Positions 6 through 29,155 are shown, counted from the first letter of the stretch. The stretch: 32,000 nucleotides of DNA from Propionibacteriaceae bacterium (GCA_031256725.1 JAIRQE010000009.1:30001-62000), one strand, 5' to 3'. Notes: a model not told the origin generated them from the letters alone. Numbers and translations: made by a program.

Positions 6-746
6 TTATTCTTTGTCGTTTATAGTGACGGGTGTATTGAGTAGCTTTAAGTCAGCACTTGATACAAAACCAGTGGAAATAGCCCATTCAACCAAGCATG
101 CTCGGCGACCACTCGCATGGGTATGCACTCCACCTCTCATACCCTCGACGCCCAATTTGTCGAGTTTCGAACAGACGTTATCGATCTTCTTCTCAAAACG
201 TTTCACTGGCCAACCGATCCGGGCAGCCGCAGATGCGTTGGTTGGTATCCTCGCAACACCTAGGCCTTCACGCAGCAACATGGGTTCGGCTAAAGCAAGA
301 ACCGCCAGATGCTGAGCTTGGGTCCAGCCGATTTCACGTACTGTCGTGTCCCCATCCGAATCGATATGCGGTATGGCCACTTGCCATCGGGGCTCATCAT
401 TGAGCAAGGTCACCCGATAATCACAAGGACCTGCCGTGAACACCACCTCAACTCGATTAAAAACCACTGGCAGACGTGATGATGGACCGAGCCATGCTTG
501 GAGACCAGTCACTTGATCATGGACTGTAGCTCCCAATCCTGTGCCAATGTTGGCAAGCCACCAGAATTCATTTTCAAAAGATATCCGTAAGAACCTTCGA
601 TGAAGGTAAGGATTATTGTCAAGACATAGATCCGCATCACGACCAATATCGAAGACTCGATCTGGACTCAGAGAAACTCTCTGTCCCTCGTATTCCACGA
701 TAAGACCTGAGATCTCTTCAATACCATCAATGTCGACTATGCTCAT
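6..746 (-). CDS. FHA-like N-terminal domain protein with an HTH-like C-terminal region (hypothetical); last visible gene of the kinase operon
   Basis: The ORF track gives 6..755. The internal ATG at 746 forms ATGA with the kinase stop (743-745), so I prefer 746 as the start. The N-terminal segment 'IGRDADLCLDNNPYLHRRFLRISF...NIGTGLGATV' resembles an FHA core (GR ... NG-like), but no clean SxxH is visible. The C-terminal 'GRRACLVEWAISTGFVSSADLKLL' looks like a helix-turn-helix tail. Domain calls are from motif memory only. Confidence 0.7.
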   Translation of the reverse strand: MSIVDIDGIEEISGLIVEYEGQRVSLSPDRVFDIGRDADLCLDNNPYLHRRFLRISFENEFWWLANIGTGLGATVHDQVTGLQAWLGPSSRLPVVFNRVEVVFTAGPCDYRVTLLNDEPRWQVAIPHIDSDGDTTVREIGWTQAQHLAVLALAEPMLLREGLGVARIPTNASAAARIGWPVKRFEKKIDNVCSKLDKLGVEGMRGGVHTHASGRRACLVEWAISTGFVSSADLKLLNTPVTINDKE

Positions 747-2395
747 CCTGCACATCCTTGTGCATCAGGAGAACCATTCCCATGTCGCAGAATCTTGACC
801 TCGATACACACCATGGTCTGCCCTTCTTCAAGTTTGATAGTGGCTTGTGGAAGACTGGCGATTGAGGGAGTGACGTCCTCGGCTCCAATAATCACCCAAC
901 GGTACTTGTCTCCATCCTGGGGATCAGGGTTGGTCCACGTGAATTCCGCTACACCTCTTTGCGCGTCTACAACCCCTGTAACATCAACAGGGGTTGGTGG
1001 TATTGCCGCACCCACTGGATCCTGAGGATTAGCGACAGTGGCTGTCGGCGATTCCGCCACACCAACGGGATCTCTGGGTTTACCAGTCATAGCGATCACT
1101 GCAATCACACCGCCAATGACCAGCAGAACAACTACACCGATGATGATTGGCCACGGGATTGTTTTTGGTTTAGGTTCAGTGGTCGACCAAGATTGAACAG
1201 GCGGAGCAGTAGGTACTCCTTCCGATTCCTCTAAGGAGCCTTTCGCCCTCCAAAGAGTCTCCTCAACCGCATCTGTTGGGCCAGTACCAGGGCGACGAAG
1301 CTGAGTTCTATCGATAGGAGCAGGTGGGCCACTATACATTTCCACTGGTGGTTTAGGCACACTGGGTTGTGGCGCAGTAGTACTCCAACCGCCAGGAGCT
1401 GTTGAGGGTGTTGATGCTGTGGGATCAATGATGGATATGGGTCTTAGACTGGTACCAACAATGTCATCATCATCACTATCCAGACCCTGCGAGGTTGAAT
1501 CATCAAAGATATCCATCTGAGTTGGTCTGAGACTAAGCTCGAGCTCTACTTCTCGTAAAGCCAAACCGAATGCCTTCATGGAAGGGTACCGTGACTGTGG
1601 CGATTTCGCCATGGCAGTCGCTAAGACTTGATCAAGGGAAGCAGGTGCATCGACCCGCCCCAGTGGTACATATGGCTCATTTCTGATTCGATGGATCAGC
1701 GCATGTGGTTGCTTGTTCCCTTCCCCTGGGATTTCAAACGGAGCCCGACCTGTCAAGAGCGCATATATTGTAGCTGCAAGCGACCAGATGTCGGATTGTC
1801 GCGAAGGTCTCGGATTACTATCAAATGATTCCGGCGGACTCCATGGAATCGACAACCCCTGTGCCTTACCTCGCTCAGCCTCGGCATTGGTCATCGCGAT
1901 TCCAAAGTCTCCCAAAACAGGACGACCGGAACGATCAACAAGAATATTCGCTGGCTTAATGTCTCGATGCAGAATTCCTTGCGAAGATGTCTCCGCCCCA
2001 AGCACAGTCACCCTATGAGCTGATTCAAGTGCTCCAGCAAGTTGAATCCCTATGCTTAATGCCTCATCAACTGGTTTTTGAGATCGACTCAATCCCTTCG
2101 ATAATGCAGGACCTGGATAGTACTCCATCACCAGATAGGGCCGACCATCTGCGGCTATGTCAGAGTGGAAGACTGTCACGATATTGAGATGCTGCGACAG
2201 ACCTGCCATGGCATCAGCTTCCTTGTTAAGGCGGGCGGCAGCCTCAGAGCTTGCTACGTTGGAATGCAAAACTTTAATGGCCACTTGTCGTCGTGGTGTC
2301 ATCTGCGTATACAAATAGACATCGGCGAAGCCACCATGCCCAATGTCCGCAACATAAGTGAAGCCCGGTATTCGAGGAGGAGATGCAGTAGCCAT
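743..2395 (-). CDS. Hanks-type Ser/Thr protein kinase with a single TM helix and a small C-terminal ectodomain (no PASTA repeats)
   Basis: The protein is 550 aa. Kinase motifs present are the Gly loop 'IGHGGFADVY', 'VAIKVL' Lys, 'HRDIKPANILV', 'DFGIA' and 'SPPE'. A TM helix 'IPWPIIIGVVVLLVIGGVIAVIAM' is followed by about 110 aa including 'FTWTNPDPQDGDKYRW' and two Cys residues. The start overlaps the upstream stop (TAATG at 2393-2397). Confidence 0.93.
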   Translation of the reverse strand: MATASPPRIPGFTYVADIGHGGFADVYLYTQMTPRRQVAIKVLHSNVASSEAAARLNKEADAMAGLSQHLNIVTVFHSDIAADGRPYLVMEYYPGPALSKGLSRSQKPVDEALSIGIQLAGALESAHRVTVLGAETSSQGILHRDIKPANILVDRSGRPVLGDFGIAMTNAEAERGKAQGLSIPWSPPESFDSNPRPSRQSDIWSLAATIYALLTGRAPFEIPGEGNKQPHALIHRIRNEPYVPLGRVDAPASLDQVLATAMAKSPQSRYPSMKAFGLALREVELELSLRPTQMDIFDDSTSQGLDSDDDDIVGTSLRPISIIDPTASTPSTAPGGWSTTAPQPSVPKPPVEMYSGPPAPIDRTQLRRPGTGPTDAVEETLWRAKGSLEESEGVPTAPPVQSWSTTEPKPKTIPWPIIIGVVVLLVIGGVIAVIAMTGKPRDPVGVAESPTATVANPQDPVGAAIPPTPVDVTGVVDAQRGVAEFTWTNPDPQDGDKYRWVIIGAEDVTPSIASLPQATIKLEEGQTMVCIEVKILRHGNGSPDAQGCAG

Positions 2396-3858
2396 TATGC
2401 GAGCTCCAATACAGTAAGGCTGAGTTCTGAACTTAGGCAGTAAACGTCTCCTGCCTGAGCGATTACTTGTTCGCCTTTAGTGAATCGACGATCAGGCTGA
2501 CCTATACGACGCAGAATCGTCCCATTACGACCCATGCTGGTGACTAGAACGCTCCAGTCCTCAAGGTCGATTTTTAGATGGGTGGACGAGATATGGGGAT
2601 CATTAACTCCAATAAGTAGTGGAATATCGGAGTTTGAAAATCGCGTAGCCTCAGGTTTTCTACCAATAATGACGGGCTTATCAATCGGAATAACATCCCC
2701 ACTGGGAAGCCGTATCTGTCCCAACGATGGCCGAGGGATCTGCATAGCATCCCCACTGAGCGTATTATGACAGCTTCTACAGTCGACTCGTCTTGTGGAA
2801 TTAGGGGTACGACAGGCTGGGCATAGCCTAGCCAGAACAGTCGGCTGTGATGAATGTACAACAGGAGGTGGCGCAGGAGCTGGGGCCGCAAAACTAGGCA
2901 CATCCATCACCGTCATTCCGTCGTGATCCTCTGATCCGATGTCAGATAGCGACATCACTGTCATCCCATCATGGTCATCGTCCTCAGATGGAACTAACGC
3001 AATAGTGTGGCCGTCATGGTCATCACTATTACCCTGGCCACTACTGGAATGCGGAAGTGAATTACCAATCTGCGCAGCCTGTGGCTCAAACAACCCCAGA
3101 TAATATGTCGTTGACTTCAGATCAGGGTCTTCATCTGGTTCTGGAGGCTCGTAGTCTTCCTGCATCAGTGTGGTTTGACCAGTGGACTGAACAGGAACTG
3201 GTGAAATCACGTTGGCGCTTAGGTCTTCAACGAAAGGAGATACCTGTTCCATGCTCGCTGTACGTGAAGGCACTTGTTCTGGCTCCAAACTCAGTGGTTC
3301 CCTGAGATTCGCTAGATCGACAGGTGTCTGTACCACGGGATACTGAGAAGAAAGTGACTGTGATTCAGGCCTACTAATAGGCATGAGCTCTGATGAGTTC
3401 CTCATATGTTGGCCCTCACCTTGATCCCCCATCATTCGAATACTCGAAATTAGGACGACTCCACCTTGAATTGGCCATTCGACATCAGTGGACTGTTTCT
3501 CTCTGGTGAGAACTTCTATACTGTGAGGAGCAAGGAGGATTTTCTCTTGCCAAGATGTCGCCCCATATCCATTCACGGTGAAGGGACCATCTTCCGCGAG
3601 TCCGGAAACAACAAGTTGCCCTCGCACGACAACACGGGTCCCATATCCTCCTGGCTCACACACGACGATTGCGAAATCCGGCAAAGAGGAAAGCTCAATC
3701 CCGGCCTTTGCGAAGACTTGAAGCACCCCAGTAAATCCATGTCCGGATTCCAGCGTTGACCATAATTCATTGATCATAGAACTGGAGATCGTGGAGTCCA
3801 CCACAATGAATCCATTCGCACAGACCAAACCATGCCAATCACCTGGAACATACCTCAT
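2395..3858 (-). CDS. FHA-domain protein with a zinc ribbon and acidic DHDG[HM]T repeats
   Basis: The protein is 487 aa. The C-terminal FHA domain reads 'IIGRKPE...ISSTHLKI...SMGRNGTIL' (GR / SxxH / NG). A Cys4 zinc ribbon reads 'CPACRTPNSTRRVDCRSCH'. Three DHDG[HM]T[IV] repeats lie upstream of it. The start forms ATGA with the PP2C stop (3855-3858). Confidence 0.88.
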   Translation of the reverse strand: MRYVPGDWHGLVCANGFIVVDSTISSSMINELWSTLESGHGFTGVLQVFAKAGIELSSLPDFAIVVCEPGGYGTRVVVRGQLVVSGLAEDGPFTVNGYGATSWQEKILLAPHSIEVLTREKQSTDVEWPIQGGVVLISSIRMMGDQGEGQHMRNSSELMPISRPESQSLSSQYPVVQTPVDLANLREPLSLEPEQVPSRTASMEQVSPFVEDLSANVISPVPVQSTGQTTLMQEDYEPPEPDEDPDLKSTTYYLGLFEPQAAQIGNSLPHSSSGQGNSDDHDGHTIALVPSEDDDHDGMTVMSLSDIGSEDHDGMTVMDVPSFAAPAPAPPPVVHSSQPTVLARLCPACRTPNSTRRVDCRSCHNTLSGDAMQIPRPSLGQIRLPSGDVIPIDKPVIIGRKPEATRFSNSDIPLLIGVNDPHISSTHLKIDLEDWSVLVTSMGRNGTILRRIGQPDRRFTKGEQVIAQAGDVYCLSSELSLTVLELA

Positions 3859-4655
3859 GACATCACCCGCCCAGGTTGAAATCTCCAGTCCCCAATCACT
3901 TCTTCAATGGTTTCCTCATCTTCAGATTCGTCAGCGTCTTTTACATCCACAACGATCACTGAAATGTTGTCTCGACCTCCCGCTTCTAAAGCAGCTTCCA
4001 CAAGTTTGTTCACAGCATCCTGCGCGAAAGTTTCATGTCTAAGGATGTGTGCAATGACGTCATCGTTGAGTTCTTCAGTGAGTCCATCCGAGCAAATCAT
4101 CCATCTCTCAGGTCCTTGTACTGGAAATAGCCAGTATTCTGGACGTTCCACAGTACGACCTCCAAGAACTCTGGTGATCACGTGTCGACGTCCATAATTC
4201 TGAGCATCCAATACATCTAACCGCCCAGCCTCGATCATTTCCTGTACCTCAGAATGGTCGACCGAGATTTGCGTCACTTCAGACTTGGTTGCTCGATAGG
4301 TGCGAGAATCACCTAGATTCAACACAAGCCAATAGGGTTGGTCAGCCTGCTGGACAAGAACAAGACCACTGATAGTAGTTCCAGCAGCGCGCCGTGCATT
4401 AGTGACCTCAAGATGATCTATTCCAGCTCGGGCACGAGTCAGAGCATCTCTTACGTCTTCTACCTGAGGATAGGGGCCAAGTTTGCCCATTTCTTCAACA
4501 GCAATAGAACTTGCTCGATCCCCAGCATCATGTCCGCCCATGCCATCCGCGACAATGAACACTGGGGTTCTTGCAAGGACTGCATCCTCGTTGAGTGAGC
4601 GCCTGTGTCCTGCATTGGAACAGTGAGCGACTGTGAGGGTGGGTTGAGTGGTCAT
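3855..4655 (-). CDS. PP2C-family Ser/Thr protein phosphatase
   Basis: Diagnostic motifs are 'RSLNEDAV', 'VADGMGGHDAGDRAS' and 'GGRDNISVIVVDV'. The track ORF extends to 4805, but the ATG at 4655 ('MTTQPTLTV...') forms ATGA with the upstream stop (4652-4655). The extra 50 aa lie inside the upstream gene. Confidence 0.9.
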   Translation of the reverse strand: MTTQPTLTVAHCSNAGHRRSLNEDAVLARTPVFIVADGMGGHDAGDRASSIAVEEMGKLGPYPQVEDVRDALTRARAGIDHLEVTNARRAAGTTISGLVLVQQADQPYWLVLNLGDSRTYRATKSEVTQISVDHSEVQEMIEAGRLDVLDAQNYGRRHVITRVLGGRTVERPEYWLFPVQGPERWMICSDGLTEELNDDVIAHILRHETFAQDAVNKLVEAALEAGGRDNISVIVVDVKDADESEDEETIEEVIGDWRFQPGRVMS

Positions 4656-5401
4656 CTGCTGACCCCTTCTATCACGAACCTGCGTGAACCTATGGTGACA
4701 ACGTCTCCAACCTGGACCTGCTTCTCGGCCCGTGGCTGCAGGGGGGTTGTTTGTCCTTGACGAACCAATGTTGATCCATTGGTTGAGCCCCGATCTTTGA
4801 TCCATAACCCGAGGCCATCAAACCCATACTCAAGATGTGTTTTCGAGATGGAGGTGTCGTTGATCGCAGTACACATCACACCAGGATCTGAGGAACTTGG
4901 GTTGCGCCCGATGAGACCTGATCCCATAATTCGTATGCGTTGCCCTGTATCGAAAACGAAATCTACCGTTCCTACATGAATCGGACCATACGATTGGATT
5001 GATGGAACACCCTGATTGGGATCAGGAAGCACCTGAACTTGAGCAGGGTATCCCGTTGGAGGAGTTGTCGAAGCTCCTGGAAGTGGAGGATACGGAGGAT
5101 TGAAACCAGGCTGTGGAATATAAGGAGCGCGTCGCTCAGGAGCAGGCGGATAGTCCAATGCAGGTGTTTGTACTGCTGGTCGCCGATTAAATGGCGTCCC
5201 TTGCTGAGGAGGCGATGACGGCAAGTAGCCTTCCTGGACAGGAGCAGGAGTTTTTGGAGCAACTGGAGGCGCTCCTGGCACACTTGAAATCTTCGGTACT
5301 TGGGACTGTGTGGTCAACACTTGACCACAGGTCAAACACATTTTGAGATCAGCGCCCACGAGAGCAGAACAATTCGGGCACTGTCGGGCGGGTTGGTTCA
5401 T
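4652..5401 (-). CDS. Zinc-ribbon / proline-rich linker / FHA-domain protein
   Basis: The N-terminal zinc ribbon reads 'CPNCSALVGADLKMCLTCG' and is followed by a long Pro-rich linker. The C-terminal FHA domain reads 'LIGRNPSS...SISKTHLEY...DRGSTNGSTLV'. The ATG at 5401 forms ATGA with the transglutaminase-like stop (5398-5401). The track start at 5407 is a GTG two codons upstream. Confidence 0.87.
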   Translation of the reverse strand: MNQPARQCPNCSALVGADLKMCLTCGQVLTTQSQVPKISSVPGAPPVAPKTPAPVQEGYLPSSPPQQGTPFNRRPAVQTPALDYPPAPERRAPYIPQPGFNPPYPPLPGASTTPPTGYPAQVQVLPDPNQGVPSIQSYGPIHVGTVDFVFDTGQRIRIMGSGLIGRNPSSSDPGVMCTAINDTSISKTHLEYGFDGLGLWIKDRGSTNGSTLVRQGQTTPLQPRAEKQVQVGDVVTIGSRRFVIEGVSR

Positions 5402-6681
5402 TTCCACTCCTGTATGTCCAAGGTTGGTTGAGGATTACGACGTAGGGATGCCAAAGAAAACTTGGACATGAACCTCCGCCTTGATGGGAAGGTGGAAGCG
5501 AGGGACCGCGAGACCTTCTCGACTTCTTTCCAGAATTCAGTTGCTTCTTTTTCGGTGGGAGGCGAAGGTGCAAAGGTGCCCTGGTTAGCTAAGTAGGCCA
5601 ATCTTTCTACACCTTCTACACTGTGAGCTTTGGCTAAGGCTGCACTGATTTGTTTACGTGTTGCTGCCTTAGGCGGGATAATTCCGAGGTCAGTCGCATG
5701 GTCAACCATTTCTTGCCAGCCATGCGCGACACGATGTGTGAGGTCCGGGGTTTTTCTTCGTTTCTTGGTACGGCTGAGCTTTATGGAAGTAATAATGATC
5801 AGTGGAGTCACCAAAACCCCTATAGGAATCGTGACAGCGAGTGCGATCCTTAGGATTCGACCCCAGTCAAAGGGTTCTTCTTCCTCTTCTTCCTCATCGT
5901 CGCGAGGATCGAGAGCGGATTGCGAGACATCAGAATCCGAGGAATTGGAAGGCGGAGGAGGCTGCAGTACCTGTGGTTTGGGTTTTGCTTTTGAGCGTTG
6001 ATCCTCTTCTTTCGGTTCTTGATCTTTATCAGGTGTCGGGAAGAAGGGTACCCATCCTATTCCTTCAAATGGGACCTCGACCCAAGCCTGAACATCTGAT
6101 CCTGTGACCCTCCAGGTTGACCCACTGAAGGAGGACTCTGCATCCACACGGAATCCCATGACTACTCGTGATGGTATCCCTGCATCATTCAACAACAGGG
6201 CAGCAGCAACGGCATACTGCTCCCCGTCACCTATCATCCGCTCTGGCTTGTCGAGGAGTTGAGCAATTCGGTATGACGAATGTCCCGGATTCGAGGGTTC
6301 TTCACTTTCGAGTCCATGAGAAAAGAAACCTGTTGTTTGTAATGTGGAGACTATCTCTTCGACTCGTTTAAGGGGGGACTTGTCAGTCCCTGCCCATTCT
6401 GTTGAAAGCGCACCGACCACATCCGGAACCCATTTAGGCTTGGGCATGGCAACCGTCATCAATGAGGTCTCATTCGCAGGTTTTTTACTACTCAAGGTTG
6501 CATTGATGGTGTACGTTACTCCAGACCCTAAAGCAGCAGTGTCAATCAGGGCATCTGTGCTGGGATTGTAGTAGAGAGATTCGGTGAGGGCTTCAAAACG
6601 CTCTCCTGTGAATTCAAGTGTGTCGGAGTGCGATACAGAGTCCACATGGGAAATGGTGGGAAGCTCCTGTGGCAGCACCAA
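5398..6681 (-). CDS. Transglutaminase-like protein, C-terminal fragment (core domain, TM helix and cytoplasmic tail); frameshift-split, possible pseudogene
   Basis: The segment 'GDGEQYAVAAALLLNDAGIPSRVVMGF...DVQAWVEVPFEGIGWVPFFPTPD' aligns to the Transglut_core pattern G-C-E-Q-F-A ... H-A-W-V-E-V ... F-D-P-T-P. A TM helix 'ILRIALAVTIPIGVLVTPLIIITSI' follows. The track 'M' at 6681 is a TTG codon, and this frame stays open upstream to 6717. The fragment has no signal peptide of its own. Confidence 0.75.
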   Translation of the reverse strand: MVLPQELPTISHVDSVSHSDTLEFTGERFEALTESLYYNPSTDALIDTAALGSGVTYTINATLSSKKPANETSLMTVAMPKPKWVPDVVGALSTEWAGTDKSPLKRVEEIVSTLQTTGFFSHGLESEEPSNPGHSSYRIAQLLDKPERMIGDGEQYAVAAALLLNDAGIPSRVVMGFRVDAESSFSGSTWRVTGSDVQAWVEVPFEGIGWVPFFPTPDKDQEPKEEDQRSKAKPKPQVLQPPPPSNSSDSDVSQSALDPRDDEEEEEEEPFDWGRILRIALAVTIPIGVLVTPLIIITSIKLSRTKKRRKTPDLTHRVAHGWQEMVDHATDLGIIPPKAATRKQISAALAKAHSVEGVERLAYLANQGTFAPSPPTEKEATEFWKEVEKVSRSLASTFPSRRRFMSKFSLASLRRNPQPTLDIQEWK

Positions 6682-7588
6682 CGTTATAGACCATGCCGTC
6701 GTAGGTGTCCATAACGGCTAAGCGCAATAGATAATCCTTGTCCCATCCATCAATGATGAAGAGCACTTCTTCTGCGCGATCATCCACAAGGTCCCTGAAA
6801 GAAATCAGGGGGCTTGGATATGCGTGTGTATCCAATGGGGGAACCACATGACGTCGAAGGGCTTCCCTATCTAGGTCAGAGATGACAAAGATTCCCAGGC
6901 AGCCAGCTACGAGAGCACCGATGACTAATTGTATTCCCGCTTTGAGCGTTTTCGAACGACGAACAGCCGCAGTTGAAGCCTCCGAAACCATAAGTTGGTT
7001 GGAGTCGCTTCGCCACGCAATCCAGGCAAGGGATACTCCTGCCATCACGAGAGCTTGAGGTATCGGCATATAGGATCGGGCAGTACCAAAGAGGATTACG
7101 AGAGCCGCCAGCAACCCAAGAGGGATAAAGACCAACCAGATCCTCTTCGCTCTCCATGCAGCCGTTCCAGCACCCACCGCCACAAGGAGCGCAAGAATGA
7201 AGGGAACCAAGGTCATCCCGAAGAAACTCCCCAAAGGTGTTGATACAGTAACGAATTGCTTCCATATACCGACTGATCCGAAAACTAGAATCCTCAAACA
7301 GTCAAGATCTGGAACAACACCAGCGATGGCTCTCGTCCACAGCGCTCCAGCAGCACCAAAGACGAAGTATGCCCCGACAGTGACAGCTGCCACGATTATT
7401 GTTGGCCAACGCTTCCATGCCCCCACCCAGGCAATAACCAACCCAACAGCCATCCCTACAAGTGCTGGTCGAAGGAATCCGAATGAACCAAAGGCTGGCC
7501 AGAATCCCACCAGAGCTGCACTCATGATAAGCAGAATCGCACCCACATCAACGAGGACGCGGGGAGTGAAAAATCGTGGTCTATCCAT
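6614..7588 (-). CDS. Transglutaminase-like protein, N-terminal polytopic membrane fragment; frameshift-split
   Basis: The fragment is 324 aa with about six hydrophobic helices, then 'LRLAVMDTYDGMVYNV', which is typical of the start of the periplasmic part of TgpA-like proteins. It ends in a short out-of-frame-looking tail and overlaps the next fragment by 68 nt in a different frame. An SD-like GGTGGA lies upstream of the ATG at 7588. Confidence 0.75.
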   Translation of the reverse strand: MDRPRFFTPRVLVDVGAILLIMSAALVGFWPAFGSFGFLRPALVGMAVGLVIAWVGAWKRWPTIIVAAVTVGAYFVFGAAGALWTRAIAGVVPDLDCLRILVFGSVGIWKQFVTVSTPLGSFFGMTLVPFILALLVAVGAGTAAWRAKRIWLVFIPLGLLAALVILFGTARSYMPIPQALVMAGVSLAWIAWRSDSNQLMVSEASTAAVRRSKTLKAGIQLVIGALVAGCLGIFVISDLDREALRRHVVPPLDTHAYPSPLISFRDLVDDRAEEVLFIIDGWDKDYLLRLAVMDTYDGMVYNVGAATGASHHFPCGLCIALRHT

Positions 7589-7597
7589 AATTCCACC

Positions 7598-9067: not shown

Positions 9068-10035
9068 GAAGGCATCCCGATCTTGGGTGCAGGCACCTCG
9101 GTGAGGATCCTCCCTACAATCTGGGAAGCAGTTGCGCCAGCAAACTCGGCTTCAGGATCAAGGACCAGTCGATGGGACAGGACTGGCCCAGCGAGTTCCT
9201 GAATATCTTCAGGAAGAACATATTCACGCCCCTGAGAAGCAGCCCACACCTTGGCTGCCCGAGTCATGGCGAGAGCCCCACGCACGGAGACCCCGATTCG
9301 GGTTTCGGAGGTCGCCCGAGTTTCTTCCGCAATCCATGAGACGTAATCCAAGACTGCATCAGGCACATGGACCTTAGCCGCCATATCAGCCATCTGACAG
9401 ACCGCATCAGTTGTGATGACCGACGAAATGGCAGCAGCACGATTCTTCACAGCAGCGCCAGAAAGGATTTCAACGGTACTCGCCCTGTCTGGGTATCCAA
9501 TCGATGTCTTCATCAGGAATCGGTCAAGTTGAGCCTCTGGTAGGCGATAGGTACCTGCCTGCTCAATGGGGTTCTGAGTGGCAAGCACCATGAAGGGGCG
9601 ACCCACCGGGCGGGTAACCCCATCCACTGTCACCTGACCCTCTTCCATGACCTCCAAAAGGGCAGACTGGGTCTTAGGCGAAGCACGGTTGATCTCATCA
9701 GCAAGAACAATGGTGGCAAAGATTGGCCCCGGTTTAAACTCGAAGACCCCACGAGACTGGTCATAGACTGTGACACCAGTGACATCAGTCGGCAAAAGGT
9801 CCGGAGTGAACTGGATACGCTTCTCCTGGCCTTCCACTGAGGCAGCCAGTGAGCGAGCTAACATGGTTTTTCCTGTACCAGGCGCATCCTCCAGAAGGAT
9901 ATGCCCCTCGGCGAGGAGAGCCGACACAGCCAGACGCACCACGTATTCTTTACCGAGCACTGCTTGACTCACGCTTGAAACGATTTGCCCGAAAGCTTGG
10001 GCAAACCATTGTGCCTCTTCACGAGTTATTGACAT
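9064..10035 (-). CDS. moxR: MoxR-family AAA+ ATPase
   Basis: The protein is 323 aa. Motifs present are Walker A 'APGTGKT', Walker B 'VLADEINRASPKTQSALLEVMEE', sensor-1 'LATQNP' and 'LPEAQLDRF'. Its size is typical of the family. Confidence 0.93.
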   Translation of the reverse strand: MSITREEAQWFAQAFGQIVSSVSQAVLGKEYVVRLAVSALLAEGHILLEDAPGTGKTMLARSLAASVEGQEKRIQFTPDLLPTDVTGVTVYDQSRGVFEFKPGPIFATIVLADEINRASPKTQSALLEVMEEGQVTVDGVTRPVGRPFMVLATQNPIEQAGTYRLPEAQLDRFLMKTSIGYPDRASTVEILSGAAVKNRAAAISSVITTDAVCQMADMAAKVHVPDAVLDYVSWIAEETRATSETRIGVSVRGALAMTRAAKVWAASQGREYVLPEDIQELAGPVLSHRLVLDPEAEFAGATASQIVGRILTEVPAPKIGMPS

Positions 10036-10061
10036 GGTTTTCCTTTTCTAAATGTTTCAAG

Positions 10062-13000
10062 CTACCAGTTCATTGTCTGGGTTTTGGAGGTAACTCCATG
10101 GATCTCGACTGTGAACACATCCGTCTTGTTGACGTAGCCATTCAGGCCACCCTGTCCGCCATGTTTAGGACATGCCATATATCCACTTCCATCAGAGGCG
10201 CGACCAACCTCCACTTGGCCCGTAATGGAGCCTGTCATCCCATTGGGTTGCCTCCAAGAACATGTCACGGTATATGTGCCCCCACCTTCAAGAGCCCACT
10301 TATTGAAACCGATGTGCCCTCTACAACCTCCGGTCAATCCGGGACCTACTGCACCGACACAATCGTTGGGGTTCACATACAACCAGTACTCTGCTGCTGG
10401 TTTGGAATGGGCTGTGGTTGAAGCGCTATTCTCTGAGCACTGACCCTCCGAATCACAGGCTTTGACCCAAATGGTATGGGTCTGCCCCCAACCATCTCCA
10501 ATCGAAATAGTTCCACTGTCCAAACCGTCTGTTTCCCACCAGCTACCCGTATCAATTTTAGCCATAACGTAAGTAACTCGGCGACCGTTCCAGCTGGGCC
10601 TACTCCAGCCAAGAATCACTTTCGTGCTTTCCCGGTCACTCGGGCGTTCCGCTGTAGCTCCAGGTTTATTCACTGGCCCAAAAGGACGACAACTGGTTAC
10701 CGATCGCTCCTCACCATCCTGTGAAAAGCCTTGCACACTAGTCCGAGCCCATACAGTAATAGTAATAGCATTATCAGAATTAGCTAGGCCAGACGCCGTC
10801 CCTGACGTGCTTGTTCCAAAGTCTCCAGACTGACCAGAACTCGCTCTCCAGTGATATGTCACCTCAGAGGATTTGGCTCCATTGAGAGCTGCGGGGCTGA
10901 AACTCACCACACATGCCTTGTCTCGATCTTGGGTGGAAAGATTCGAAACTGGTCCAGGTTTGATCACCGATCTGAACTCATCAGAGTTCACGGAAAATTG
11001 CCCTTGCCCAGCTTTGTTGTGCGCAGCAACCTTGAAGGTGTAGCCATTTTCAGAACTTGGGAGAGTGGTGGTCCGACATGTTCTTCCACCTGTGGGAGTT
11101 ACTGTGTAGGTCACTCCACTTGATGAAGTCAGAGTGTAGGAGGAGATCCTATCCCCATTGTTGTAGGGTTCAGTCCAGCACACCTCAACCTGCCCTTCAG
11201 AACCAACAGGATTCAGTCGAGTCCAGGTGGGTTGCACTGGTGGATCAGGAGGCCCTGCTGGAATCTGTGGAAGGGAGAGAGGAGACCAGTGGCTGGCTTG
11301 CTCACAGACCCCAGGAGCCAGGTTTCGAGCACAAGCCATGACTTGGTATTCGGTTCCGTTCGACAGACCCGACCAGACGTAAGATGTGCCAGTGACATTC
11401 ACGATTGCCTGCCCCGAGGGCGGAGGTGGCGAGATCTCTAGATCATAGGAAGTAACAGGAGATCCAGGACTTCCTCGAGGAATCCACGTAATAGTCAAAG
11501 ACTTGTTGCCAAATGCAAGGACTGGAGCATCGAGCCTATTAGGGATCGCATCTGGGCGTGCTTCATCGGAAGCCATAGAGGGATCGGATGTACCCACCTC
11601 ATTTGTGGCGGTCACAGTGAATCGATAGGTGACGTTGTTCGTCAATCCATTCAAGATGCATGTGGTGGTTGGACACTGTAATGGGTAGCCTGACGCGGGC
11701 GGACTTGAGGACACGGTGTATCCACTCAGGGGTGCACCATTATTATCCGCAGGCATCCAACTCAGAATCACCTGTCGATCACCCACTTGATCAATATGAA
11801 CACCTGTGGGTGGGCTTGGTCTGCCACGAACATTGAGATAGATCCGCCCAGTCGACTGACGGTTGGGATCCTGGGTGACATCCACGATCACATATCTCAC
11901 AACCATTTCACCCAGGAAAGAGGCTGCTGGAGTCACATTGACGCCCTGGCCTCCCCCGCAACCCACTACAGCTTGCCCATCACCGGTTTCAACCGATGCA
12001 CTGACGACCGTCAGGGAATCATTGGGGAAAGGATTCGTGTCATTACTTGTCACAGGAACGCACACAGTCTGCCCCTGATTCGAGCTAGGGATCATGTCAT
12101 CAACAGCCTGAGGCAGAGGTCTCCTAGTTCCTACGATCTTTATGGTCACAGTAGCCTCAACTTCAACCTCACCTAAGGTGACAGATACTCGAAGAACCGA
12201 CTCGCTTCCACTGGGAACATTGGAACCTGCGCTTGCAGTGAGCGTTGAACCGCTTAGGCTGGCCTCTACGCCACCAAGAGAGGGGCCCTCCAGCAGTGAG
12301 TACGTCAAGCGATCTGTTGGCTGAACATTCGACACTAGAGTCGCCAAATCAAAGGTGGAACCCTCTCCCACCTCAACCTCAAGGGCCGTGCTTCTCATCA
12401 CAGGAATGGTGGCTTCTTCTTCGTCCTCTTCCTCTTCTTCCTCCTTGGCCTTATCACCAGGAAGAACTTTGACTGGGATCGTCACCACAGCAGCAATGCC
12501 CGTGTCATCCTCCAGGGTTGCGCCATCAGTTACCTTGACCGAAATAGCGGCTGGCCCCTGATAGTTGTCGGGGGCAGTGAAACTCAGTTGAGTCACCGAT
12601 GGTGCGGTAGCCGAACCATTCCATGCTGTTATTCCTGCTGCATCGACAACCCTAGGGCTACGATCCGTGCGAACTATCACATGATCAGCCAGTGCGAAAG
12701 AAATAGTCTCTCCTGAACGGACTTCGACACGTTTCGCTTCTGGGTTATATTGAGGTGGAATAAGGTCTGCCCCTGGCACTGTAATGAATCCATGTCCAAC
12801 CTGACCATCGGGATCAGTGACGTAATAGTCAATGATTTGGAGGTCAGCGGTGATGGGCACAGTCACGTTATTGGCTGACACGGATACAGTCGGATCATCA
12901 ACGCTGACAACCAAGGATTCTTTATCCCCATCTGGATCATAGTCATTAGCCAAAACCTCAAGGGTCATAGAAGTATTAAGAAGGGCCTCTAAGGTCGAAA

Positions 13001-15635
13001 CCTCGTCGTCGGTGACTAGAGGCTTCTTAGGCTGAATATCTTCAGCGACTGTCAACACGATGACCCCAGTGGACTCCTGATAGAACTCATCGGAGACTGT
13101 GTATGTCCCCCAATAGGATCCCACCTGGTCGGGAGCTTGAATGATGACTTCCTGACCATCCACTTCTCCAGTGAAAAACTCCGATTGAACTGAGCCACCT
13201 TTCAGATAGCAGCAGATGTCTCCATCAGGATCAGTGTCATTCATGGTCACTGGAATAGTTACCTTGCCGCCTGGAATAGCCTCAGCAAAATCTGTAACTG
13301 CATTGGGAGGAAGGTTCATATCTGAGGCAGGTGCTACGCCTATCCGCACACGGCCAGTTGATTCCAATCCAAGTCTGTCCCTGACCACATAGGTGAATTC
13401 GTCACCAGTCGTATTCGCCCCAGGCTCATAAACGAACTTGTTTCCTTTGAGCGATGTGATGATTCCTTGACCTGGCGCAGAGGCTAGCCCCGTCACTGTC
13501 ACGTGATCACCATTGGGGTCGACACCATTCAAAGGAATCTCAATATTGACTGGATTCCCGATTCGTGTTCGGGCCTGAACATCCTTAGGCTTAGGAGCCT
13601 GGTTTCCACCCTCATCTTGTGGAGTGACATAGATAGTGAGACGCCCAGTATCCGGTTCAGCAGAACCTTTGACAACCTCGACCTGATAAAGAACCGTATA
13701 TGTTCCCGGCTCCTGGCGAGCATGGACCCTGACCGTATTACCCGAGGTGAAGACAAGGGCTTCCGTATCAGGATCGGGGGTCTCAGGAAGGTCTGGGCGG
13801 AGCCTGAGAGCGATTCCATTGGCCTGAGTATCGTTGCTTAACACGCTCACCGTGGCGATGTCTCCAACGCGTACCGTCACGGTGTCATCCACCGCAGTGG
13901 GAGGAAGAACCTTGTCTGGAGCAGGAAGCGGCACAACTGTAATGCGACTTGAGGCATATCCCTTACCATTGGAGACCGTATAGGAAATAGAAATTGGTGA
14001 TGAGAACTCCTGATTGGGCGTGATCTTCACCCGCTCATATTCCAAAACCGACACACTCACTGGGAGACCCGAATCAACACCGACACTGGTCACTACAAGC
14101 GGGAACCCAAGCGGGTTCACATCATTGTCGAGCGGGGTTACAAAGGCATCCTGACCAGGAGAAAGGAGCACTGTATCGGGAACTGCGATTGGCGGCTCAT
14201 CACCAGCCGCCTTGGGAATCACTAACACCCTTATCCATGATTCAACATTGGCAGAAGGACCGTCAGTCACGGTGTAGGTCAGGTATACCGATCCTGGTTC
14301 TGAGCAGGTTGCCGTCACCAAACCTTGAGTGAGTTCCTTTTCCAATACACACTTGGCAGGATCACCTTCGACCCCCGTTAATCTCAACGAGTTACCATTG
14401 GGATCCGTGTCATTATCGAGCGGCCGGATTTCAATAGGAGTATCGACTGTTCCTGAGACAAGATCTGGTGTCGCCACTGGTGGCCTATTACCAGAAGGCA
14501 AAACATTCACCATGATTTCCTGGGTATTTGACTCTTGCCCATCGGATACAGTGACCTGAACCGTTTTGACACCCGTCGTGAGACCACCATCCTGGAAGGT
14601 CAAAGTCCCATCTTGTGTCACAGTAACCGAATCTTCTTGAGGCGCTTCTGCCCCAAGAAGGAAGATCGTATCTCCATCTGGATCTCTCCAGTTGGTCAAA
14701 ACATTATGGGTTACACGTTGACCACTAGAGACCGTTAGTACTGTAGCTCGTGCTGTCTCAGGAGCGGAATTCTCAGACTCAGGGCGAATGGCAACCGTGA
14801 CAGATGCGGTCGATTCTCCCCCTCGACCATCATGAACCCTGTAAGCAAAACTCACCACACCTGAGGCTGTTGCTGGAACATTCATTTGTATGATCGCTTG
14901 CGAATACACGAGGTTAAGATCAAAACCGGCAGGGGCGCTTCCGAGCAACTCAACTGTGAGAAGATCCCCATCCTCATCAATATCATTTTCAACAACGGGA
15001 AGGAGCACACTCCTGCCTGGGCGAGCCCCAAACTCATCATCTCTAGCTACCGGAGGCCTATTGTCTCCTGAGCGATCAATCTTCTCGTTCTCATCGATCT
15101 CTTCTGTACTGTCCTGATCCTCATTGCCTTCGTCACCTCGAAGGGCTTCCTCCCAATTGTCCACCTTGACAACAAGATCAGTGACCAACCAAATGCCGCC
15201 AGACTTTATTTGATTGAGCACGATATGGCCCCAGTTGACACGAAAACGAAGCTCATCATCAACATCGAAATCGGGTATGGCCTGCTTCAGATCGTGGGTC
15301 TCGCCAATACAGTCTCGAATGAAATCTCCAGTCTGTGACCAGACTCCGTAAGTACATCCGTCCACAACAACAGGCTGGGAAGGAATACCCTCTGCAGATG
15401 TCACCTCGGGATCCTGCCCACCTAGAGGTTGTACGACTAAACCTTGGGTGGTGGCGTATGCTACTGAACTACCTGACTCAGACATCGCCTGCAACACGAC
15501 AGGATCTGTAGTCAGATCAACCGCCTGAAGATTCATACTTTTCTTGGTTCCTAAGTGAATCACTTGAGAATCATGGTTGATGACAACTGGAGTTTTCCCC
15601 ACAACGGTCATCGAATAGGTATCTTCCTCACCCAA
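10062..15635 (-). CDS. Giant surface/secreted protein, main fragment: multiple cadherin-like/Ig-like repeats, about five FN3 domains and a Cys-containing C-terminal domain
   Basis: The ORF is 1857 aa. Recurrent Ca-binding-type repeat motifs include 'ENDIDEDGD', 'DNDTDPNGN', 'MNDTDPDGD' and 'ANDYDPDGD', each preceded by 'PPVA/PNAV'. FN3-like modules include 'PSPPTGVHIDQVGDRQVILSW...YTVSS' and 'LTITWIPRGSPGSPVTSYDLEIS'. A poly-Glu patch 'EEEEEEDEEE' is present. I saw no signal peptide, LPXTG motif or TM helix. The track 'M' at 15635 is a TTG codon, and the frame is open upstream to 15701. Confidence 0.85.
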   Translation of the reverse strand: MGEEDTYSMTVVGKTPVVINHDSQVIHLGTKKSMNLQAVDLTTDPVVLQAMSESGSSVAYATTQGLVVQPLGGQDPEVTSAEGIPSQPVVVDGCTYGVWSQTGDFIRDCIGETHDLKQAIPDFDVDDELRFRVNWGHIVLNQIKSGGIWLVTDLVVKVDNWEEALRGDEGNEDQDSTEEIDENEKIDRSGDNRPPVARDDEFGARPGRSVLLPVVENDIDEDGDLLTVELLGSAPAGFDLNLVYSQAIIQMNVPATASGVVSFAYRVHDGRGGESTASVTVAIRPESENSAPETARATVLTVSSGQRVTHNVLTNWRDPDGDTIFLLGAEAPQEDSVTVTQDGTLTFQDGGLTTGVKTVQVTVSDGQESNTQEIMVNVLPSGNRPPVATPDLVSGTVDTPIEIRPLDNDTDPNGNSLRLTGVEGDPAKCVLEKELTQGLVTATCSEPGSVYLTYTVTDGPSANVESWIRVLVIPKAAGDEPPIAVPDTVLLSPGQDAFVTPLDNDVNPLGFPLVVTSVGVDSGLPVSVSVLEYERVKITPNQEFSSPISISYTVSNGKGYASSRITVVPLPAPDKVLPPTAVDDTVTVRVGDIATVSVLSNDTQANGIALRLRPDLPETPDPDTEALVFTSGNTVRVHARQEPGTYTVLYQVEVVKGSAEPDTGRLTIYVTPQDEGGNQAPKPKDVQARTRIGNPVNIEIPLNGVDPNGDHVTVTGLASAPGQGIITSLKGNKFVYEPGANTTGDEFTYVVRDRLGLESTGRVRIGVAPASDMNLPPNAVTDFAEAIPGGKVTIPVTMNDTDPDGDICCYLKGGSVQSEFFTGEVDGQEVIIQAPDQVGSYWGTYTVSDEFYQESTGVIVLTVAEDIQPKKPLVTDDEVSTLEALLNTSMTLEVLANDYDPDGDKESLVVSVDDPTVSVSANNVTVPITADLQIIDYYVTDPDGQVGHGFITVPGADLIPPQYNPEAKRVEVRSGETISFALADHVIVRTDRSPRVVDAAGITAWNGSATAPSVTQLSFTAPDNYQGPAAISVKVTDGATLEDDTGIAAVVTIPVKVLPGDKAKEEEEEEDEEEATIPVMRSTALEVEVGEGSTFDLATLVSNVQPTDRLTYSLLEGPSLGGVEASLSGSTLTASAGSNVPSGSESVLRVSVTLGEVEVEATVTIKIVGTRRPLPQAVDDMIPSSNQGQTVCVPVTSNDTNPFPNDSLTVVSASVETGDGQAVVGCGGGQGVNVTPAASFLGEMVVRYVIVDVTQDPNRQSTGRIYLNVRGRPSPPTGVHIDQVGDRQVILSWMPADNNGAPLSGYTVSSSPPASGYPLQCPTTTCILNGLTNNVTYRFTVTATNEVGTSDPSMASDEARPDAIPNRLDAPVLAFGNKSLTITWIPRGSPGSPVTSYDLEISPPPPSGQAIVNVTGTSYVWSGLSNGTEYQVMACARNLAPGVCEQASHWSPLSLPQIPAGPPDPPVQPTWTRLNPVGSEGQVEVCWTEPYNNGDRISSYTLTSSSGVTYTVTPTGGRTCRTTTLPSSENGYTFKVAAHNKAGQGQFSVNSDEFRSVIKPGPVSNLSTQDRDKACVVSFSPAALNGAKSSEVTYHWRASSGQSGDFGTSTSGTASGLANSDNAITITVWARTSVQGFSQDGEERSVTSCRPFGPVNKPGATAERPSDRESTKVILGWSRPSWNGRRVTYVMAKIDTGSWWETDGLDSGTISIGDGWGQTHTIWVKACDSEGQCSENSASTTAHSKPAAEYWLYVNPNDCVGAVGPGLTGGCRGHIGFNKWALEGGGTYTVTCSWRQPNGMTGSITGQVEVGRASDGSGYMACPKHGGQGGLNGYVNKTDVFTVEIHGVTSKTQTMNW

Positions 15636-15669
15636 GTCAGAAAAACCAGCTTTGTCGATCTTGGCAGAT

Positions 15670-16245
15670 TCAGCTTCTGAGATACCCCCCCCCCCAGACC
15701 GTTATTAGGGTGCTAGTCAAAGGGTCGACAACGTATCCTGTTCCATCAAACCCAACCGAAGACACGGCATTGTGTGGAAGATCCTCAACAATCGGAGGGA
15801 AGACCTCAGTATTCGGATCAAATCCTGCTACTGAACTCACAGGGATCATCCAGAACTTTCCCTGCTCAGGAACAAGGATTCCAACCATCTCTCCACCAAG
15901 ACTTACCTGAGTACTCGACCCAAGGAGTTGTTGGATTCCCAAGGTCAGATTAGGAGGATTCACCTGAACAAAAGATCCATCATCAGGACCAGTAACGAAG
16001 ACGGATGTGCGGTCCTGAATCACATCGAAATCGGTGACTTCCGTCACATACGAAATACCATCAATCTGCCCTGCACTGTGATTAAAACGCCCCAGATGTT
16101 GGATGGAATGATTCGTCACCCAAACCCCAGAGTCATTCATATCGACTGTAGCAACAGGCATTCCCTCACTCGCTACAGCAAGACCAACCAATCCCATAGA
16201 CAAGGACGCGACTAACCCAACGGACAAGGCTTGATGCCATTTCAT
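15670..16245 (-). CDS. N-terminal fragment of the giant surface protein (Sec signal peptide plus the start of the N-terminal domain), truncated just after the poly-G tract
   Basis: 'MKWHQALSVGLVASLSMGLVGLAVA|SEG' has the n/h/c layout of a signal peptide. An SD-like AAAGGAGA lies upstream of the ATG at 16245. The ORF ends '...TVWGGGYLRS*', where WGGG is encoded by the G11 run. Confidence 0.8.
   Translation of the reverse strand: MKWHQALSVGLVASLSMGLVGLAVASEGMPVATVDMNDSGVWVTNHSIQHLGRFNHSAGQIDGISYVTEVTDFDVIQDRTSVFVTGPDDGSFVQVNPPNLTLGIQQLLGSSTQVSLGGEMVGILVPEQGKFWMIPVSSVAGFDPNTEVFPPIVEDLPHNAVSSVGFDGTGYVVDPLTSTLITVWGGGYLRS
15685..15695 (-). repeat. 11-nt homopolymer (C11 on the + strand, G11 on the coding strand) at the junction of the two giant-protein fragments
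   Basis: Counted directly from 'gata cccccc ccccc agacc'. The other homopolymer runs I noticed in the window are 6 nt or shorter. Confidence 0.97.
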
Positions 16246-16497
16246 ACTAGCTTTGTCTCCTTTCGCTGCCTGCCACCTGAACCCCCAAACAATCTCCGAT
16301 GTTTGATCGGAGCCTATTATTTCACCATCATCTGATTTATCTCATCATTAAGATTCCTTCTGAGACAACATTGATCAGAAAATCCCCTACCGGACCTTGA
16401 CAGAGAATGCTACCTAACAGACAAATCAGATTCTCTAATTCTTTCTTGATGCGAAAGATACGTCCATGGGGATAAATCCCCTTGTTTCCTTTCCGCA

Positions 16498-16985: not shown

Positions 16986-17393
16986 CTAGTCATTGCGCAC
17001 TGTTAGGGCCCAGGATTGATCACCTTCAACATAAGCTCCATGCCAGACCTCATTGCTGAACATGAGTGCACCAGAAGATTCTGAAGTAATCTCCCATCCC
17101 AAACCTGGCAGGGTTCCCCTGAGATAGGCTTCGATATCCTTCGCTTCTGAGATGATCCCTGTCACGATGAGAAGATTCCCCTGATCAGCGGTATAGGTCA
17201 GGGTTACATGATCAGGAATCCAGATCATTGACGCGGCTTCGTTGGTGAATCCTAGGCGAGCTAGGGACTCCCCGGTGTTGGGAAGACTCACCTGTACCGT
17301 GGGCGTAGGAGTCGGTTCCCCCATATTCCCCGCAGAACAGGAAGACAGCATCAGCGATCCAAGGATCACCACAGCAATTGTGCGAATCCTCAC
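16986..17393 (-). CDS. Putative lipoprotein (hypothetical)
   Basis: The lipobox 'LSSC' follows the hydrophobic 'RIRTIAVVILGSLML'. A GTG at 17393 is preceded by the SD AGGAAGGA about 6 nt upstream. The track start at 17483 would add 30 non-signal residues and overlap the divergent gene's start. Confidence 0.65.
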   Translation of the reverse strand: MRIRTIAVVILGSLMLSSCSAGNMGEPTPTPTVQVSLPNTGESLARLGFTNEAASMIWIPDHVTLTYTADQGNLLIVTGIISEAKDIEAYLRGTLPGLGWEITSESSGALMFSNEVWHGAYVEGDQSWALTVRND

Positions 17394-17482
17394 ATGAGTC
17401 CTTCCTATGCCCAACCAGGGAGCATTCCCAGCGTACCCCAGAGGTCTCCAGTAAGCTGTGCGGGTATCATAAGGAGACTGCA

Positions 17483-18895: not shown

Positions 18896-18902
18896 AGCAA
18901 TC

Positions 18903-19337: not shown

Positions 19338-19352
19338 ATCCTTCCATCGACC

Positions 19353-20339: not shown

Positions 20340-20357
20340 CGAGCCCCCTTCAGTGAC

Positions 20358-21919: not shown

Positions 21920-21975
21920 CTTAGTGGGTTTGGGAGGGAATTGTGAGAGTTTTGGCTAGTAAAAGCTTGGTTGGA

Positions 21976-22386: not shown

Positions 22387-22464
22387 ACCTCAACCCTACC
22401 GATAGTCCCAGGATGTGATGCGAAGGAACACTGGGAAAGGTGGAACTCGCGTACACTTGTTTCC

Positions 22465-22887: not shown

Positions 22888-22888
22888 A

Positions 22889-27231: not shown

Positions 27232-27262
27232 AGGGCCTTTACATCAGTCAGTGGCGCGCTAG

Positions 27263-27520: not shown

Positions 27521-27557
27521 CTCAACCTTCTCATCCCAAAGTATGATCTAACACAAA

Positions 27558-29143: not shown

Positions 29144-29155
29144 AGAAACAAGTAT

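Follow-up and report, generated by a model that had tools for sequence, protein, structure and literature searches.

The closest described relatives of the gene cluster considered here are the Esr (epibiont sensing and response) pathway of Schaalia odontolytica (Wang et al., bioRxiv 2026-09-09; PMC13622651) and the PFNA operon of Bifidobacterium (Nezametdinova et al. 2018/2021; Dyachkova et al. 2019). The cluster is a run of nine genes on the minus strand, from position 16245 down to position 6, of a 32,000-nucleotide (nt) stretch of DNA from a Propionibacteriaceae bacterium (GCA_031256725.1, JAIRQE010000009.1:30001-62000), hereafter the window. Comparison of its domain content, gene order, phyletic distribution and neighborhood suggests, with a probability that we put at roughly 0.8, that it is a member of an actinobacterial Esr family that includes the bifidobacterial PFNA operon, situated beside an Esx/type VII secretion system (T7SS) locus.

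EsrA of Schaalia carries a Sec signal, an N-terminal β-propeller of the WD40 class and 14 Ig-like repeats, and it has no LPXTG motif; the other parts of the pathway are a MoxR protein, a vWA protein, the transglutaminase EsrD, the kinase EsrE, the phosphatase EsrF and EsrG, in which an N-terminal pseudophosphatase is followed by a disordered region bearing a phosphothreonine and by a C-terminal FHA domain (PMC13622651). Infection by a Saccharibacterium results in EsrA1-dependent phosphorylation of EsrG1 at T152, deletion of esrA abolishes both the genome-wide transcriptional response and the phosphorylation of EsrG, and deletion of esrD1 releases EsrA1 into the supernatant (PMC13622651). The pathway induces Esx secretion and surface remodelling, and its reported role is defence against epibiotic Patescibacteria; 3502 Esr loci were counted, mostly in Actinomycetales and Propionibacteriales, and 40% of them adjoin esx genes (PMC13622651). 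The PFNA operon has the order pkb2-fn3-aaa-atp-duf58-tgm-prpC-hyp-fha, and its genes are co-transcribed in B. longum GT15 (PMC8430577). According to the PFNA papers, Pkb2 phosphorylates the MoxR ATPase and a fragment of FN3 binds TNF-alpha in vitro, and the operon is said to exist only in bifidobacteria (PMC10688814). The PFNA operon is never mentioned in the Esr preprint (PMC13622651).

The run in the window comprises 11 open reading frames (ORFs) that make up nine genes, two of which, the giant gene and the tgm gene, are interrupted. Its features, in the direction of transcription and followed by the upstream region, are as follows.

10062 to 16245, minus strand: esrA/fn3-like gene for a surface protein of about 2060 aa (Pfam), present in the assembly as ORFs 16245-15670 (191 aa) and 15635-10062 (1857 aa)
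15685 to 15695, minus strand: G11 homopolymer (C11 on the plus strand) at the frame switch of the giant gene
9064 to 10035, minus strand: MoxR-family AAA+ ATPase, 323 aa (AAA_3, E 3e-62; AAA_lid_2; bpMoxR, E 1e-10)
7598 to 9067, minus strand: DUF58 (vWA-related) protein, 489 aa (Pfam DUF58)
5398 to 7588, minus strand: esrD/tgm-like membrane protein gene, interrupted (TgpA_N and Transglut_core)
4652 to 5401, minus strand: FHA protein 1, 249 aa (Pfam FHA)
3855 to 4655, minus strand: PP2C Ser/Thr phosphatase, EsrF-like, 266 aa from the ATG at 4655 (PP2C_2/PP2C)
2395 to 3858, minus strand: EsrG-like output protein, 487 aa (Pfam FHA, C-terminal)
743 to 2395, minus strand: Hanks-type Ser/Thr kinase, EsrE/Pkb2-like, 550 aa (Pkinase, E 5e-33; no PASTA repeats)
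6 to 746, minus strand: protein of 246 aa with a predicted FHA fold and a predicted LuxR/GerE-like helix-turn-helix (HTH) domain (AlphaFold2, Foldseek), candidate transcriptional output
16294 to 16345, minus strand: promoter-like site and palindrome, 49-100 nt upstream of the esrA start

The ORF list of the window shows a continuous run of minus-strand ORFs from 16245 to 6, as an initial annotation made from the sequence had described it, and the six shared start/stop junctions reported there proved exact when the coding strand was read directly (ATGA at 9064-9067, 5398-5401, 4652-4655, 3855-3858 and 743-746; TAATG at 2393-2397). Its figure of at most 26 nt for the gaps fails at one place, where 34 nt separate 16245-15670 from 15635-10062, but this interval lies within one gene; the annotation had missed the interruptions of the giant and tgm genes. 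Pfam bore out the MoxR, DUF58, transglutaminase-like, FHA, PP2C, kinase and cadherin/fn3 domains that it had named, as well as a kinase without PASTA repeats and a run free of rodA and pbpA genes. Of the three FHA-type proteins that it had counted, two are recovered by Pfam and the third, encoded by 746-6, by the fold obtained with AlphaFold2 and Foldseek. That the genes are made together agrees with the experimentally established co-transcription of the bifidobacterial version (PMC8430577). The statement that no characterised pathway has this composition does not stand: an already published function of an orthologous cluster was what the annotation itself had named as refuting its reading, and the PFNA operon (2018-2025) and Esr (September 2026) are published relatives with assigned functions.

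The window cluster shares with Esr a surface protein with Ig-type repeats and without LPXTG, a MoxR ATPase, a vWA/DUF58 protein, a membrane transglutaminase-like protein, a kinase, a phosphatase and an FHA output protein, as well as the layout of EsrG, the adjacency to an Esx/T7SS locus and the occurrence in Propionibacteriales. In the giant protein, Pfam finds nine Big_9, seven Cadherin_4 and three fn3 stretches, along with Cadherin_5; the repeats are preceded by an N-terminal signal/anchor helix (a hydrophobic transmembrane helix at residues 6-24) and a conserved β-rich N-domain and are followed by a C-terminal domain, and no LPXTG-type motif was found in the protein. The MoxR ATPase is 57-77% identical to its counterparts in related loci. 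The DUF58 protein combines a basic N-terminal tail with a two-helix membrane hairpin, the transmembrane helices lying at residues 108-157. The kinase consists of a kinase domain with the VAIK, HRD and DFG motifs, a linker, one transmembrane helix (417-435) and an ectodomain of about 115 aa, and on reading of the sequence the PP2C retains the metal-binding motifs DGMGGH, GDSR, DG and GGRDN. All seven cytoplasmic genes are intact and keep their catalytic motifs. The EsrG-like protein has a conserved N-domain of about 140 aa, found in 44 loci, an acidic disordered linker, a Cys4 motif and, at its C terminus, an FHA domain. FHA protein 1 has an N-terminal Cys4 zinc-ribbon-like motif, a Pro-rich linker and an FHA domain at the C terminus, and was found in 55 of 69 loci; the architecture of this protein varies among genomes, as a Subtercola version (L089, 4965-6086) has an RDD membrane domain in place of the zinc-ribbon N terminus. 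A scan of the window products against NCBIfam gave no match at the curated cutoff, the PP2C reaching E 3e-50 against Stp1_PP2C_phos, under that cutoff, and a PADLOC scan returned only generic kinase, PP2C and AAA matches and no known defence system.

Direct sequence comparison ties the same proteins to the PFNA operon. We translated the B. adolescentis PFNA proteins from the codon alignments in the supplement of PMC6803598. The tgm product (WP_011743632) matches the C-terminal half of the window Tgm at 31.5% identity over 400 aa (E 1e-46) and the N-terminal half at 26.6% over 244 aa (E 9e-15), the duf58 product (WP_011743631) matches the window DUF58 protein at 31.7% over 372 aa (E 4e-62), and the N-terminal 507 aa of the fn3 product (WP_041777402) match residues 15-486 of the frame-corrected giant protein at 27% (E 1e-32). 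Against loci from Micrococcales, the B. adolescentis tgm product reaches about E 1e-70. These matches of tgm, duf58 and the fn3 N terminus, regarded as full-length homologues, indicate that PFNA and the Esr-type cluster of the window are one family. The two share all five core genes, together with prpC and FHA accessory genes, and their giant proteins are alike in size and in the position of the fn3 domains, near residue 1480-1500. They differ in that the kinase gene stands first in PFNA and eighth here, after the EsrG-like gene, and in that PFNA has been described as a bifidobacteria-specific sensor of host cytokines, whereas the window copy lies beside a T7SS in the metagenome-assembled genome (MAG) of a member of Propionibacteriaceae. 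In a search seeded with a homologue from a Bifidobacteriaceae MAG (P0049), the genus Bifidobacterium was absent among the best 120 matches.

To survey the distribution of the cluster, all window proteins were compared by tblastn with 80 genome loci anchored on the last gene, the count of gene order being confined to the 69 in which the upstream flank measures at least 9 kb. The DUF58, Tgm, PP2C, second FHA and kinase genes are collinear in 57 of these 69, so that the co-conservation anticipated by the initial annotation is observed and goes far beyond chance. The order MoxR, DUF58, Tgm, FHA, PP2C, FHA, kinase, FHA-HTH spans Micrococcales, Propionibacteriales and Actinomyces, and the carriers include Microbacterium, Arthrobacter and its relatives, Cryobacterium, Subtercola, Promicromonospora, Oerskovia, Luteimicrobium, Actinomyces and Propionibacteriaceae. 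Twelve loci fall outside the strict count: three (L017, L050 and L075) have the cluster yet fail the strict test, and the other nine (L031, L032, L034, L054, L055, L056, L058, L073 and L074) have the FHA-HTH gene without MoxR-DUF58-Tgm upstream, often with only an FHA or PP2C match nearby. The nine, in whose high-GC DNA ORF calling is unreliable, may be paralogues or split systems. They come from several Microbacterium, Timonella, Sanguibacter, Gordonia and Frigoribacterium, and the Sanguibacter locus (L054) retains FHA, PP2C and kinase genes. Two metagenome loci (L082 and L083) are likewise collinear; a metagenome scan with the DUF58 protein gave only 5 loci and no close relatives. The cluster is a real and widely conserved actinobacterial unit. 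Judged by these sequence matches, the family is not confined to bifidobacteria or to host-associated bacteria and is widespread in free-living actinobacteria.

The cluster is also physically linked to a type VII secretion locus. This locus was invisible to the initial annotation, as it is situated beyond the window. Directly past the left end of the window, on the same contig (L090, 10766-20741), the last gene is followed by a gene for an LRV_2 protein and then by a convergent operon coding for a WXG100 protein, proteins of 198, 286, 494 and 568 aa, and an EccC/EssC-like ATPase of 1478 aa with N-terminal FHA domains and FtsK_SpoIIIE. The 568-aa protein has a weak T7SS_signal/PPE-like N terminus. 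In at least 50 related loci, the EccC-like gene has the same orientation as the last gene and begins at most about 100 nt from its end, and according to the gene calls in a Luteimicrobium (L088) and a Subtercola (L089) locus, the stop codon of the last gene overlaps the start of eccC, with WXG100 genes next. The T7SS block is convergent here and co-directional in most relatives.

Since domain content, topology, collinearity, T7SS adjacency, taxonomy and PFNA homology all agree, we favor membership in the Esr family. The signalling steps that this would entail are carried over from the Esr preprint, whereas domain content, gene order, conservation, PFNA homology and T7SS adjacency were read directly from the sequences. 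By analogy with Schaalia, a long EsrA-like surface filament would detect an extracellular antagonist, and the polytopic EsrD-like transglutaminase-like protein would keep this filament on the cell, in our own view by a non-catalytic hold. On the same analogy, the MoxR ATPase and the DUF58/vWA-like membrane protein would link the sensor to the membrane kinase. The target of the kinase would be a threonine of the EsrG-like FHA protein, within its disordered linker, and the PP2C would reverse the modification. Through contacts between FHA domains and phosphothreonine, the signal might then reach both gene expression and the adjoining secretion system, the latter at its FHA-bearing EccC ATPase; we suggest that the FHA-HTH protein would carry the transcriptional output and that EccC would be a second target. 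The outline in the initial annotation of an envelope-associated machine that joins a surface protein, a MoxR/DUF58/transglutaminase set and phospho-signalling thus finds its counterpart in Esr, but not the chaperone-assisted assembly that it had offered as one reading, for the published role is the sensing of threats and the control of transcription and Esx secretion.

A candidate for the phosphorylated residue comes from the linker of the EsrG-like protein. The window copy has three DHDG[HM]T[IV] motifs at residues 282-319, and 43 of 45 homologues have a motif of the form [DE]HDGxT[IVLM] in their linker, as against 0.06% of shuffled sequences. On the strength of this conservation, we propose the invariant Thr of the DHDGxT motif as the phospho-acceptor; its identification as the site is ours and not that of the Esr preprint.

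The last gene, whose 746-6 product has no match in Pfam or NCBIfam, is the best-conserved member of the run, with about 50% identity between orders. AlphaFold2 models of the product have a mean pLDDT (predicted local distance difference test score) of 81 over the whole protein. Residues 15-116 are predicted to adopt an FHA fold, which Foldseek matches with probability 1.0 to the FHA domains of Rv1747, OdhI and GarA, and the FHA signature residues G35, R36, H49 and N66 are invariant, with Pro in place of the usual Ser. The C-terminal 110 aa form a predicted four- or five-helix fold (pLDDT 85; predicted template-modelling score, 0.79) whose best Foldseek matches are the DNA-binding domains of LiaR, GerE, NarL and DosR, with probabilities up to 0.99 and template-modelling scores of about 0.78 but weak E values (≥0.4). 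The family numbers 3552 clusters at 90% identity and 894 representatives at 50%, occurs in at least 504 species-level genomes and extends to Acidimicrobiia (e.g., Microthrix). Loci anchored on DUF58 have the whole run giant-MoxR-DUF58-Tgm-FHA-PP2C-FHA-kinase without the last gene, which marks it as a frequent accessory rather than a core component; a 269-aa ORF after the kinase in L082, considered as a divergent version, showed no similarity to it. In an ENA metagenome (P0132), the FHA-HTH unit makes up the C-terminal 230 aa of a 612-aa fusion protein. A Bifidobacteriaceae MAG (L087, 7249-10753) has a reduced module of an FHA protein (106 aa), a PP2C, an EsrG-like protein (DUF7577 and FHA) and the FHA-HTH gene, with no kinase or MoxR gene nearby and a penicillin-binding protein gene adjoining; in this it is like the end of the PFNA operon in B. 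longum, prpC-hyp-fha. How phosphorylation of EsrG alters transcription is left as an open question in the Esr preprint, which mentions no HTH protein (PMC13622651). The earlier suggestion of the last gene as a transcriptional output fits the predicted combination of an FHA fold with a LuxR/GerE-like HTH fold. We tentatively put forward this protein as the missing transcriptional output of Esr and PFNA, which might dock on the phosphorylated DHDGxT Thr of the EsrG-like protein and bind DNA, while regarding this specific assignment as rather doubtful.

The two interrupted genes bear on whether the system is active in this particular genome. ORFs 16245-15670 and 15635-10062 are two frames of one giant gene, which switch exactly at the G11 tract, 15685-15695. 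Deletion of one G (G10) gives a single ORF of 2060 aa, and either G10 or G13 restores the frame. Relatives are unbroken at the switch point, as in P0121, in L082, a metagenome locus with a single ORF of 2030 aa, and in FN3 of B. adolescentis. The N-terminal 368 aa of the giant protein, reconstructed and used as a query, gave a single match, the query itself not being returned; this sufficed to establish continuity across the break but was of no use for taxonomy. Apart from G11, no homopolymer in the window reaches 8 nt and none in 1.67 Mb of related loci reaches 9 nt, and the G tract is absent from relatives, which are at 27-35% identity. Like the tract of a phase-variable contingency locus (slipped-strand homopolymer), it is a homopolymer within an ORF whose length sets the reading frame.

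The tgm gene is broken in a different manner. ORFs 7588-6614 and 6681-5398, which are in different frames and have 68 nt in common, correspond by alignment to the N- and C-terminal halves of the single 770-aa Tgm of locus L002 and are two pieces of one gene, which is a continuous ORF in 59 of 60 related loci. In the window copy, about 29 conserved codons are gone after YDGMVYNVG, and the frame changes there (around 6614-6681), amounting to an out-of-frame internal deletion that is not at a homopolymer. The sole PDB sequence match of the Tgm core is the TgpA domain of P. aeruginosa (6G49), onto which we mapped the triad by what we take to be its Cys-His-Asp residue numbers. The position of the TgpA nucleophile is occupied by Asp in 62 of 65 loci, by Gly in 2 (the window and its Logan copy, L001) and by the catalytic Cys in none of the 65, and it is Ser in all three bifidobacterial sequences read. 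At the TgpA His position, 59 of the 65 loci have His and the window copy has Gln. The triad positions read G-Q-F in the window and D-H followed by D, N or F in relatives. The family-wide lack of the Cys does not fit a cysteine protease, as which the PFNA papers view the protein, and as judged from these residues, the "transglutaminase" of Esr and PFNA clusters is unlikely to be a thiol enzyme, so that neither covalent anchoring nor cysteine-protease activity should be assumed.

With the sensor out of frame at G11 and the anchor gene frameshifted and deprived of its triad, the extracellular half is probably off or in decay in this genome. We give an even chance to the explanation that the cluster is a decaying remnant in this genome, or that both frame breaks are sequencing artefacts, with nothing special at G11. 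Two of nine genes are interrupted, the tgm copy has lost all three triad positions, and the source is a MAG; homopolymers are error-prone in sequencing, and G11 could be such an error. The tgm break, however, lies away from homopolymers, and no break affects the seven cytoplasmic genes, whose catalytic motifs are preserved. The window is identical to Logan contig SRR14710887_86595, and the NCBI proteins carry LBG99_ locus tags. The truncated giant (191 aa) and tgm products are, moreover, identical in the NCBI MAG (MDR0488386.1 and MDR0488382.1; 90,542-nt contig), in JGI and in the Logan assembly of SRR14710887 (83.7-kb contig); the recurrence of the same products in independently made assemblies argues that the breaks are not the quirk of one assembler. 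An 11-nt G run within a surface-protein gene is also the classic form of a slipped-strand switch, and G11 could be a phase switch by which the surface sensor alternates between on and off in a population.

Against membership in the Esr family, or against its working as in Schaalia, several points have to be set. Comparison of the EsrG-like N-domain with PP2C by hhalign gave no similarity (probability 0.1), leaving the pseudophosphatase fold unconfirmed, as is the β-propeller fold of the N-domain of the giant protein (about 370 aa), which has no Pfam match even at E ≤1 though it is conserved in relatives. The absence of the Cys across the family does not fit the covalent anchoring by a thiol transglutaminase that the Esr model assumes. 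The cluster has two FHA proteins more than Esr, the zinc-ribbon-FHA and the FHA-HTH proteins, and its PP2C is a trait of Esr1 and its Esx adjacency one of Esr2, so that it is an exact match to neither. Its assignment draws on architecture, gene order, taxonomy and a collinear Actinomyces mediterranea locus (L060) rather than on alignment to EsrA-G. Esr function has itself been demonstrated in one genus only, in a preprint (PMC13622651), and with two broken genes, the system may not work in this genome at all. The window further differs from Esr in its interrupted esrA and esrD genes and in a T7SS block inverted relative to most relatives.

A second alternative is that the cluster serves the chaperone-assisted assembly or quality control of the giant protein, which MoxR, DUF58 and Tgm would fold, insert or anchor, with the kinase module merely tuning the process. 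MoxR ATPases are chaperone-like remodellers with vWA/DUF58 partners (PMC12067865), the release of EsrA1 upon deletion of esrD1 in Schaalia speaks for such a role, and the junctions of the run are tightly coupled for translation. The phenotype of the esrA deletion, however, makes EsrA an input to signalling and not merely cargo, and the coupling of the cluster to EccC and WXG100 genes also speaks against such a role; we consider this explanation improbable. Marginally less probable still is the PFNA model, in which FN3 would bind host cytokines such as TNF-alpha for immune sensing or adhesion, Pkb2 and TGM would sense the host, and Pkb2 would phosphorylate the MoxR ATPase: its published co-transcription, in vitro TNF-alpha binding by the FN3 fragment and Pkb2 phosphorylation of the AAA ATPase, like the homology of the window proteins to the PFNA proteins, are outweighed by the presence of the cluster in the free-living soil and water genera Arthrobacter, Microbacterium, Cryobacterium, Subtercola and Promicromonospora and of the last-gene family as far as Acidimicrobiia, in view of which an animal cytokine cannot be the ancestral ligand, and by the T7SS linkage and the Schaalia genetics, which point to inter-bacterial conflict.

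More distant systems overlap with the Esr-type cluster in part. The MoxR-vWA-β-propeller ternary conflict systems (Kaur, Burroughs, Iyer, Aravind 2020; PMC7159879) share with it a MoxR protein (the window copy matches bpMoxR), a vWA-type partner, a variable sensor and the logic of threat sensing; they differ in that the window cluster has no VMAP-type effector fusion, an exported filament as sensor and a kinase/FHA relay as output. The survey of these systems does not describe the architecture seen in the window (PMC7159879), and the Esr preprint says likewise (PMC13622651). The MoxR-DUF58-TgpA triad (P. aeruginosa TgpA, 6G49) and the mycobacterial moxR1 operon (Rv1479-1481) have the three-gene core without the kinase/FHA module and without the giant protein. 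The threonine phosphorylation pathway of type VI secretion systems (PpkA/PppA/Fha1) and the FHA-bearing EssC of T7SSb share an arrangement in which a Hanks kinase of the membrane stands with a PP2C and an FHA protein by a secretion ATPase; as the secretion system and the sensor parts are different, this is an analogy only. The cell-division cluster fhaA-fhaB-pstP-rodA-pbpA-pknA-pknB was ruled out, as the run has no PASTA, FTSW_RODA_SPOVE or transpeptidase domains. The kinase scores 168 bits against the PknB_PASTA_kin model, the cutoff of which is 450.

Upstream of the run, in a divergent intergenic region of 448 nt, a promoter-like site with an extended -10 element (16345-16316) is followed just downstream by the perfect palindrome CTCCGAT-N5-ATCGGAG (16294-16312). 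In the promoter scan, the frequency of promoter-like sites was not above that in shuffled sequences, and neither the window nor L090 contains another copy of the palindrome. The remainder of the window, 16986-32000, consists of conserved actinobacterial housekeeping genes in which no frame breaks were seen; these code for a CAAX protease, an SprT-like protein, a type II dehydroquinase, a SIS protein, a phosphomannomutase, DUF3499, a zincin, DUF5719, a family-2 glycosyltransferase of 1021 aa, a mannose-1-phosphate guanylyltransferase-like protein (nucleotidyl transferase) and a DivIVA-like protein.

The cluster is no longer an unknown, its kind having been published twice, as the PFNA operon and as the Esr pathway, and these two mutually uncited literatures are now joined by direct sequence comparison. 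As the family is not specific to bifidobacteria, its interpretation as a cytokine sensor is weakened. The Asp that stands in place of the catalytic Cys across the transglutaminase-like family is a possible addition to the literature, as are the FHA-HTH protein and the DHDGxT Thr, which offer testable candidate links from the kinase to transcription, and possibly the G11 tract in the sensor gene. The window offers a natural example of a sensor gene that has lost its frame at a homopolymer, and this could be an on/off switch.

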